From Hadesarchaea archaeon (lineage in GTDB: Archaea; Hadarchaeota; Hadarchaeia; Hadarchaeales; WYZ-LMO6), in contig JAPDJF010000029.1 of assembly GCA_029259185.1 (NCBI GenBank), positions 1 through 13,224 on the forward strand: a DNA stretch of 13,224 nt, read 5' to 3'. Positions 4,281 through 4,548 of this stretch are shown here, piece after piece. Position numbers and translations under genes: made by a program. Position 1 is the stretch's first letter, and each line of letters starts with the position of its first letter. Below the pieces are notes generated by a model. It searched no databases and had not been told where the DNA came from. It saw only the letters and a program-made list of their open reading frames with translations.

Positions 4281-4286
4281 AAAAAA
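4281..4286 (-). terminator. Oligo-T terminator after the structured RNA
   Basis: T6 on the minus strand directly after the closing stem. Confidence 0.55.
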
Positions 4287-4519
4287 TGGCGGGGACTTCG
4301 ACCCGTCCGCTACTCCTTTGGTGAGAACCAAAACCTCGACCACTTTTTGGCTCCCACCAGTTTTTCGCGTCCCGGGTCTTTTTCCCGCGATTGGTGCATC
4401 GCACCGAACTCCCCGGTGCTTAGCCGCTGCCTTCCTGGGTTTTTACCCCAGTTTTTCAGCGGCTCCCCGTTGCCCGTAGGCTCCGGTTCTGCCCCACTCG
4501 CGGGCTTCTGTCCCCGCCA
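4287..4519 (-). ncRNA. Unidentified ~230-nt highly structured RNA
   Basis: The ends pair (TGGCGGGGAC/GTCCCCGCCA). It has at least five internal stems, a C(UACG)G tetraloop, G-U pairs and A-rich loops that work only on the minus strand, with a TATA box upstream and T6 downstream. Confidence 0.75.
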
Positions 4520-4540
4520 ATCATTATTCGACCGAGTTTT

Positions 4541-4548
4541 TATTTAAA
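4541..4548 (-). promoter_or_regulatory. TATA box for the ncRNA
   Basis: Minus strand TTTAAATA, ending ~22 nt before the 5' end of the closing stem, which is canonical archaeal spacing. Confidence 0.7.

Follow-up and report, generated by a model that had tools for sequence, protein, structure and literature searches.

We analyzed a 13,224-nucleotide (nt) stretch of DNA from a Hadesarchaea archaeon (contig JAPDJF010000029.1 of GenBank assembly GCA_029259185.1; here called the window), which belongs to a 1.27-Mb genome in 54 contigs that is 95% complete. It is nearly certain that a real, conserved, structured RNA gene lies on the minus strand of the window, at positions 4519 to 4281, followed on the same strand by polB. 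The polB gene (positions 1811 to 4240, minus strand) encodes a family B DNA polymerase (Pfam DNA_pol_B, 5.4e-67; DNA_pol_B_exo1, 2e-30), lies outside the RNA, and likely starts at the ATG at 4240, with the motif GAGGAG at 4258 to 4253, as judged from the sequence and an alignment of N termini. The TATA box TTTAAATA was read directly at 4548 to 4541; the terminal helix, P1, begins 21 nt downstream of it, and a T6 run at 4286 to 4281, presumably an archaeal oligo-T terminator, directly follows P1. An earlier reading made from the letters of the window alone (the sequence-only reading) had pointed out the box, a 10-bp terminal stem (4519 to 4510 with 4296 to 4287), and the T6 run, and all three were confirmed at these positions. 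The RNA probably starts near 4519 to 4522 and ends within the T run, which would give a transcript of approximately 235 to 240 nt. Covariance model R1 matched positions 4277 to 4522 with 263.3 bits (E value, 5.6e-70), and this was the single copy in the genome. The 242-nt stretch folded with -129.4 kcal/mol, compared with -83.3 ± 4.9 kcal/mol for dinucleotide shuffles (z = -9.33), and none of 200 shuffles was equally stable.

Full-length relatives with 70 to 91% identity were found by BLAST in other genomes of the order. From a structure-blind MAFFT alignment of 29 homologues, RNAalifold derived a consensus of 64 pairs in which 96.3% of the cells were paired, versus 34.7 to 46.2% when the partners were slid by 1 to 3 columns. 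Compensatory double changes were present in 38 of the 64 pairs, and none of 500 shuffles reached the observed value of any of five measures. The same consensus held for 45 distinct metagenome sequences, with 95.4% of the cells paired and double changes in 48 of the 64 pairs. The consensus structure is proven by covariation, a check on homologues that the sequence-only reading had proposed. Four of the stems that it had drawn (4486 to 4467, 4464 to 4422, 4419 to 4401, and 4355 to 4323) were present, while the stem CACCA..UCGCG/CGCGA..UGGUG (4396 to 4355) and an extension of the terminal stem by GCCCG/CGGGU were unsupported by covariation and were rejected. In the three rejected helices, 72.2% of the cells were paired across the 29 homologues, with individual pairs broken in 19 to 23 of them; 12 of 500 shuffle controls reached the same share of paired cells, and 402 of 500 reached the same number of pairs with double changes.

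The family fold has 11 helices. P1 joins the 5' strand GGCGGGGAC (4518 to 4510) to the 3' strand GUCCCCGCC (4296 to 4288), with U4519-A4287 as a tenth pair in this genome; 98.9% of its cells were paired in the 29 homologues, and 3 of its 9 pairs showed double changes. P1 closes a purine-rich three-way-junction core made of the strands J1/2 (AGAAG, 4509 to 4505), J2/6 (A5, 4383 to 4379), and J6/1 (GAA, 4299 to 4297), at least 93% conserved in all three subtypes of the family described below. Domain A (4504 to 4384) is built by two long-range helices supported by covariation, P2 (4504 to 4498 with 4390 to 4384) and P2a (4495 to 4490 with 4398 to 4393), around the three hairpins P3 (4486 to 4467), P4/P4a (4462 to 4424, with the conserved internal loop AAAAAC/GAAGG), and P5 (4419 to 4401). 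Its helices, numbered 2 to 6, had 93 to 100% of the cells paired and double changes in 21 of 35 pairs. Domain B (4378 to 4300) consists of P6 (4378 to 4374 with 4304 to 4300), P7 (4369 to 4367 with 4310 to 4308), both again long range and supported by covariation, an internal loop, and the extended hairpin P8/P8a (4359 to 4344 with 4333 to 4319); in helices 7 to 10, 90 to 100% of the cells were paired, and 14 of 20 pairs showed double changes. The internal loop between P7 and P8, GAAAAAC (4366 to 4360) opposite AAGGAGUA (4318 to 4311), keeps its GAAAA and AGUA in all subtypes, and by eye we read it as a putative loop-E (bulged-G) module, from its AGUA/GAA motif. The closing stem of the apical loop GUGGUCGAGG (4343 to 4334) covaries, and the core of this loop, GUGGUCGA, was invariant in the 29 homologues. 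It is specific to subtype 1; neither of the other two subtypes has it. When mutual information was screened for additional pseudoknot or tertiary pairs, the top pairs merely reflected subtype differences.

The same alignment bears on the possibility that the locus encodes a small protein, for example, in the 95-codon open reading frame (ORF) at 4260 to 4547 on the plus strand. This ORF starts with ATG, and 28 of the 29 homologues contain 75 or more consecutive codons without a stop. However, even among homologues with 90% identity and equal length, the open frame lies on different strands and in different phases, which indicates a compositional effect of a purine-rich, T-poor sequence. Moreover, substitutions tracked base pairing and not codons, and close relatives differed by single-base insertions and deletions. 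We thus give a coding gene next to no chance of being the correct explanation.

The signals that flank the RNA in the window recur in its relatives. Among 87 of 88 distinct copies (one was excluded because its upstream sequence was too short), a regular expression placed a TATA-like box 26 to 32 nt before the first base of P1 in 58 copies and 37 to 40 nt before it in another 7. In most of the 22 copies that the expression missed, this position is taken by TTTATTA, TTAAATA, or TATTTAA. Directly after P1, 79 of the 88 distinct copies have a run of at least four T residues, and where two copies stand in tandem, each member of the pair has its own TATA-like box and T run. From these signals, we predict that the RNA is separately transcribed as a stable species of about 235 nt.

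Matches to the covariance model fell into three score tiers, at about 250, 150, and 100 bits, and the family consists of three paralogous subtypes with the same core, each with a conserved genomic niche. Clustering of the 88 distinct sequences gave 43 members of subtype 1 (239 to 247 nt), 25 of subtype 2 (216 to 230 nt), 17 of subtype 3 (212 to 226 nt), and three odd sequences. Common to all subtypes are the same helices and a set of invariant junction nucleotides: AAGCC, the GAAC before P3, the internal loop of P4, UAA, GGAAAAAGRYC, GAAAA, AGUA, and GGUCGAA. Subtype 2 has, in addition, an invariant GGUGGUG in its P5 loop.

The niches were surveyed for 101 distinct copies, with neighboring genes assigned by Pfam. 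Twenty-three of the 55 subtype 1 copies immediately precede polB in the same orientation, at a distance of 18 to 287 nt, and 2 more lie at about 1 kb; 25 are antisense between a divergent DRG-type GTPase gene and a convergent geranylgeranyl-reductase-like gene (0 to 27 nt away), and 5 lie elsewhere. Subtype 2 occupies the GTPase/reductase niche in 24 of 25 copies. The 18 copies of subtype 3 include 4 that are divergent from moeA-mobB, 10 convergent with glnA, and 2 beside AOR, with flanks that were too short in 4 cases. Between the GTPase and reductase-like genes, subtype 2 and then subtype 1 can occur in tandem, about 70 to 100 nt apart (for example, G046:C85:7876-8093 and 8166-8411; also loci L069, L070, L107, and L140). 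The window copy is apparently the ancestral subtype 1 in the ancestral position, directly upstream of polB. As a separate observation, the DRG-type GTPase match at G014:C6:12752-13912 carries one in-frame TGA.

Covariance model R1 had full-length matches in 51 of the 66 genomes of the phylum (the main class and order hold 65 of these 66), with 1 to 6 copies per genome; of the 26 genomes with a completeness of 90% or more, 20 had a match. In metagenome contigs, a motif scan picked out 65 loci, and 53 of these contain a total of 56 model matches. The remaining 15 genomes, 6 of them at least 90% complete, had no match even at laxer filters, and they include all seven genomes of genus g5 and three of the four of genus g7. 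In two of them (G010 and G029), the genes of the GTPase/reductase junction are 41 and 15 nt apart, with the RNA genes cleanly absent there. In the slot upstream of polB, these two genomes and a third without a model match (G033) hold elements with P1-like ends, GGCGG(G/A)GG ... CC(T/C)CCGCC, and unrelated interiors: G010:C1:74934-75084 (L192, 148 nt), G029:C2:7273-7464 (L298/L303, 192 nt), and a partial element at the end of contig G033:C79 (L299). The elements of 148 and 192 nt folded with z values of -5.7 and -3.4 against mononucleotide shuffles. None of the three had an Rfam match, and the G029 element had no BLAST relative in the other 65 genomes. These elements may be remnants of the RNA, or hyperdivergent versions or a hyperdivergent subtype of it, and its absence from genomes may in part reflect divergence or decay. 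Just upstream of the P1-ended element, at about G010:C1:74819-74889 and at the same place in L298 (G029), we also noticed a hairpin element of about 70 nt that the two genomes conserve and that has no Rfam match, in whose closing stem GGGGCGAC/GUCGCCCC and GGGGUGGU/GCCACCCC differ by compensatory changes.

This patchy distribution would suit a mobile or selfish element, such as a miniature inverted-repeat transposable element (MITE), a repeat similar to a short interspersed element, or an integration hot spot. Presence varies within one genus, a genome can carry up to six copies and tandem pairs, and the RNA genes are cleanly present or absent at the GTPase/reductase junction. In contrast, the window genome has a single copy, each subtype keeps its syntenic niche across genera, and copies within a genome are divergent paralogues at the three score tiers and not near-identical repeats. 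Base pairing is under strong selection, no match was found in viral contigs, and the 48 related loci searched contain no tRNA genes. The dispersed copies with target site duplications that the sequence-only reading would have taken as signs of a MITE did not appear: the genome holds one copy, and no duplication is visible at the window copy. A mobile element is therefore a very improbable explanation.

The RNA is more conserved than the start of the adjacent polB coding sequence. Compared with the first 1,350 nt of polB, its identity was 87 to 90% versus 67 to 70% for the sister genus, 77 to 81% versus 60 to 62% for family f5, and 70 to 78% versus 64 to 66% in a third comparison.

Proximity to polB had led the sequence-only reading to offer, beside a stand-alone RNA, the alternative of a structured leader attenuating polB. 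As a cis-acting leader or riboswitch-like attenuator, the RNA would use P1 and the U tract to choose between termination and read-through into the downstream gene; such read-through would run in the sense direction into polB here and antisense into the convergent gene in other niches. In families f1 and f5, which have one RNA copy per genome, the RNA lies 23 to 41 nt upstream of polB on the same strand in all nine genomes, while the upstream neighbor varies between lineages, and the 23 polB-linked copies of subtype 1 likewise stay before polB while the upstream neighbor changes. A cis leader is also favored by the spacer, which leaves no room for an entirely separate promoter if the T run does not double as a TATA box, by the concentration of conserved nucleotides in the junctions, as in riboswitch aptamers, and by some subtype 3 copies that precede a cation-efflux gene on the same strand. 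However, in about 70 of the 101 distinct copies, what follows is a convergent gene or a further RNA copy. Because there is no gene on the same strand to be led in these cases, the family as such cannot be dedicated to leading polB. A position in the 5' untranslated region, on the same strand and consistent across copies, was found for the 23 of 55 copies of subtype 1 and not for the family as a whole, in which 25 of 55 subtype 1 copies, 24 of 25 subtype 2 copies, and at least 10 of 18 subtype 3 copies face convergent genes. Both members of each tandem pair have signals of their own, no alternative antiterminator pairing was apparent, and the downstream genes (polB, lipid reductase, glnA, and AOR) share no function. 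In archaea, moreover, termination at oligo-T is not known to need a hairpin, which also counts against a leader. The leader proposed by the sequence-only reading thus falls for the family as a whole, while the polB-linked copies fit a cis role, which we consider possible but unlikely. To its further question, whether homologues always precede polB or move, the survey answers that the polB link holds for those 23 copies of subtype 1 and not for the other niches.

The spacers between the RNA and polB offer a different account of the fixed junction. In polB-linked spacers, TATA-like elements are placed for a transcription start at or just before the polB start codon. Family f2 has a conserved TATA-like GTCAAC-TTTTATC 25 to 37 nt before the polB start codon, which argues against a leader there, and in families f1 and f5 the T run of the RNA is merged with ATGG, ATAG, or ATTA. 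In the window (4286 to 4275, minus strand), the T6 run continues into ATTAGG and forms TTTTTTATTA, a TATA-like sequence that precedes the polB ATG by about 40 nt. The terminator of the RNA may thus double as the promoter of polB, and such an overlap would by itself hold the RNA and polB together. If so, the fixed RNA-polB junction would be an example of regulatory compaction.

With regard to identity, the Rfam search that the sequence-only reading had suggested gave no significant match for any subtype. Rfam 15 comprises 4,227 models, and we counted a match when its score was at or above the gathering score of the family; by this measure, the whole window had none. With E values of up to 10, positions 4100 to 4750 gave five chance-level matches, the best of which within the RNA reached 15.5 bits against a gathering score of 80 and 10.6 bits against 60. 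Twelve loci with subtypes 1 to 3, searched with E values of up to 5, gave one unrelated match, outside the RNA. ARAGORN found no tRNA or transfer-messenger RNA (tmRNA) gene in the window or in the 48 related loci. Rfam and ARAGORN thus agree with the sequence-only reading, which had seen no RNase P, signal recognition particle (SRP), tRNA, 5S, C/D, or H/ACA signatures.

Individual identities were also rejected. The genome has a full-length RNase P RNA elsewhere (G000:C9:21703-21997, 223.2 bits, 288 of 288 model positions), as well as an SRP RNA (G000:C40:335-665, 162.9 bits, Archaea_SRP) and a 5S rRNA (G000:C5:2098-2218, 100.2 bits), and the candidate had no match to the models of the latter two. 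A tRNA-like RNA does not agree with the blank ARAGORN result or with covariation, which backs the 9-bp P1 and P6 and no T arm. For a C/D or H/ACA guide small RNA (sRNA), no Rfam snoRNA match fell within the RNA, and no K-turn signature was seen by eye. Two weak matches to the C/D-box sRNAs sR44 and sR53 lie inside polB (4138 to 4210, minus strand; 13.7 and 12 bits, E values of 1 to 4, gathering scores of 45 to 49) and are most likely due to chance. For a Y RNA bound by a Ro protein, the TROVE domain (PF05731) was found in none of the 66 genomes, while Deinococcus and Bacteroides controls were positive.

The RNA could still belong to a known family, as a highly diverged member or as a paralogue that Rfam misses. 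One candidate would be an RNase P/MRP-like RNA, whose core likewise combines a closing helix and a branched 5' arm with an A-rich junction and a long-range helix around the rest. The only known-ribozyme family of Rfam touched at E values of up to 10 was RNaseP-T, with the 10.6 bits mentioned above, and the succession of P1, the 5' arm, GGGAAAAAG-ACCC, an enclosed domain, GGGUC, and P1 appears to us loosely similar to P1-P3, J3/4, and P4 of RNase P. On the other hand, all three subtypes lacked a significant match to any of the Rfam models, the canonical RNase P RNA, SRP RNA, and 5S rRNA are all present in the same genome, the RNaseP-T match is limited to hairpin P4 and leaves the core uncovered, and none of the conserved RNase P motifs that the sequence-only reading had listed is present. 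We therefore regard a divergent member of a known family as improbable. The proposal of a stand-alone, novel noncoding RNA of about 230 nt with its own promoter is supported by homology, covariation, TATA-like boxes, oligo-T tails, and the blank Rfam result.

Taken together, we consider it probable that the family is a stable RNA that acts in trans, with the three-way-junction core and the loop-E-like module as a binding or catalytic site and with subtype-specific loops that provide specificity. P1 and the purine-rich junction carry two arms: a four-way-junction domain with three hairpins and a rod-like domain with the AGUA/GAA internal loop and, at its tip, the invariant apical loop. The invariant junction strands and the loop-E-like module may provide the site where a protein or some other nucleic acid is bound or acted on, the peripheral loops that differ between subtypes may determine specificity, and the RNA as a whole would serve as a ribonucleoprotein scaffold or a ribozyme-type RNA. 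Both the action in trans and the existence of a partner are predictions from these features. More specifically, this might be the RNA component of a so far undescribed ribonucleoprotein of archaea, or it might represent a new class of ribozyme; with its ancestral gene physically coupled to polB, it would act in or regulate DNA replication or nucleic acid processing, with subtypes for different substrates or partners; we hold this only as a doubtful conjecture.

Complementarity and gene content were searched for a partner. The 9-mer complement of the invariant subtype 1 loop, and its 8-mers and 7-mers, were absent from the 16S, 23S, 5S, RNase P, and SRP RNAs, and its 7-mers and 6-mers were absent from 22 tRNAs called by ARAGORN. 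For proteins, we compared two genomes of the same genus over nearly all of each genome, one with two RNA copies (G018) and one without a model match (G010). Of 1,186 G018 ORFs, 78 had a homologue in the window genome and none in G010, and 30 of these candidates were annotated with Pfam. The 30 include MoeA, MobB, MoaC, type IV pilus-like genes, dehydrogenases, a LAGLIDADG ORF, and DUF4143 ATPases, and 7 had no Pfam match at the thresholds used; six further candidates matched, by tblastn, the AOR gene of the window genome at G000:C22. AOR itself is present in 62 of the 66 genomes. The RNA is missing from all 4 genomes that lack AOR but also from 11 that have it, so this link was dropped. The genes that neighbor the RNA (replication, lipid, nitrogen, and molybdopterin) share no theme.

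Several points weigh against a trans-acting RNA of this kind. The fixed position near polB in all nine genomes of the single-copy families and in 23 of the 55 subtype 1 copies would fit a cis link, and the 15 of 66 genomes without a match indicate that the RNA is not universally essential. The assignment of the loop-E module and of the specificity loops was made by eye from known motifs, and expression, RNA ends, and stability are all predictions from sequence. No evident RNA-binding protein was among the 30 Pfam-annotated candidates, which were metabolic, related to pili, or of no known family. A conserved 415-amino-acid protein without a known function, considered as a partner, was rejected because its distribution does not follow that of the RNA: it occurs in 53 of the 66 genomes, but family f5 lacks it and genus g5 has it.

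Other features were also noticed. G010 (95% complete, 9 contigs) lacks, by tblastn, all AOR paralogues, MoeA, MobB, and MoaC, which form a pterin-cofactor pathway, and G018 has 7 AOR genes; only 815 of the 1,186 G018 ORFs were matched in G010, which marks a heterogeneous genus. The 23S rRNA match of the window genome (G000:C25:8151-12029) spans 3,879 nt against 2,987 model positions, and the G018 LAGLIDADG-type ORF matches G000:C25:10354-10962 inside this span. We take this to be a probable rRNA intron that carries a homing endonuclease; G010 lacks it. In the window itself, a 251-codon ORF at 388 to 1143 (minus strand) without a Pfam match almost fully overlaps an Mrp/NBP35-type ParA gene at 38 to 1030 on the opposite strand and is probably a shadow ORF.

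Within Rfam 15 and the literature searched, and among the genomes of this one phylum, we rate the family as a new RNA class. The literature search returned no description of this RNA, with the proviso that supplementary files might list such a motif, and it is not mentioned in the passages searched of two 2026 bioRxiv preprints on intergenic elements. To our knowledge, few new structured RNA classes reach such a size and complexity, and in archaea they are particularly scarce. Of the known ones, most proved to be ribozymes, riboswitches, or ribonucleoprotein cores. The invariant junction core and the conservation above that of polB imply an important molecular function. The family belongs to an uncultivated archaeal phylum with small genomes, and the alignments and covariance model make the function of the RNA directly testable.

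Compared with known systems, the RNA shares single traits with several. Like the Moco, NiCo/czcD, and M-box riboswitches, it has a conserved junction core, closure by P1, and a U tract directly after it, and some copies adjoin moeA, AOR, or a cation-efflux gene. In contrast to these riboswitches, it has no Rfam match, most copies lie outside 5' untranslated regions (divergent from moeA or convergent with glnA or AOR), and it has promoter- and terminator-like signals of its own, including in both members of tandem pairs. With 5S rRNA it has in common a three-way junction that its paired ends close and an arm that carries an AGUA/GAA loop of the loop-E type, but it is twice as long, has no match to the model, and shows the reverse strand order of AGUA/GAA. 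The terminal stem with an oligo-U tail and the several paralogues per genome, sometimes in tandem, are reminiscent of Y and Y-like RNAs, of which the vertebrate ones are linked to DNA replication, a point of comparison for an RNA beside polB. However, there is no Ro protein in the 66 genomes and no Rfam match, the RNA has twice the typical length, and the internal architecture is different.

With RNase P and MRP RNA, the latter being a paralogous ribonucleoprotein RNA that coexists with RNase P, the RNA shares an end-closing helix and an A-rich junction before a long-range helix that encloses a domain, a likeness that we treat as a lead only. The model match is insignificant, the conserved regions are absent, and the RNA is missing from 15 of the 66 genomes. 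A further comparison is with orphan structured noncoding RNAs of large or medium size that comparative genomics has uncovered, namely, OLE, ROOL, GOLLD, raiA, and the archaeal Hgc RNAs. The RNA differs from these in showing no similarity to any of them by sequence or model in Rfam 15, in being archaeal, about 215 to 245 nt long, and split into three subtypes, and in not lying beside tRNA or phage genes. Like them, it has a stand-alone gene, an intricate multihelix fold with conserved junctions and loops, strong covariation, a lineage-restricted distribution, and neighbors that do not reveal its function.

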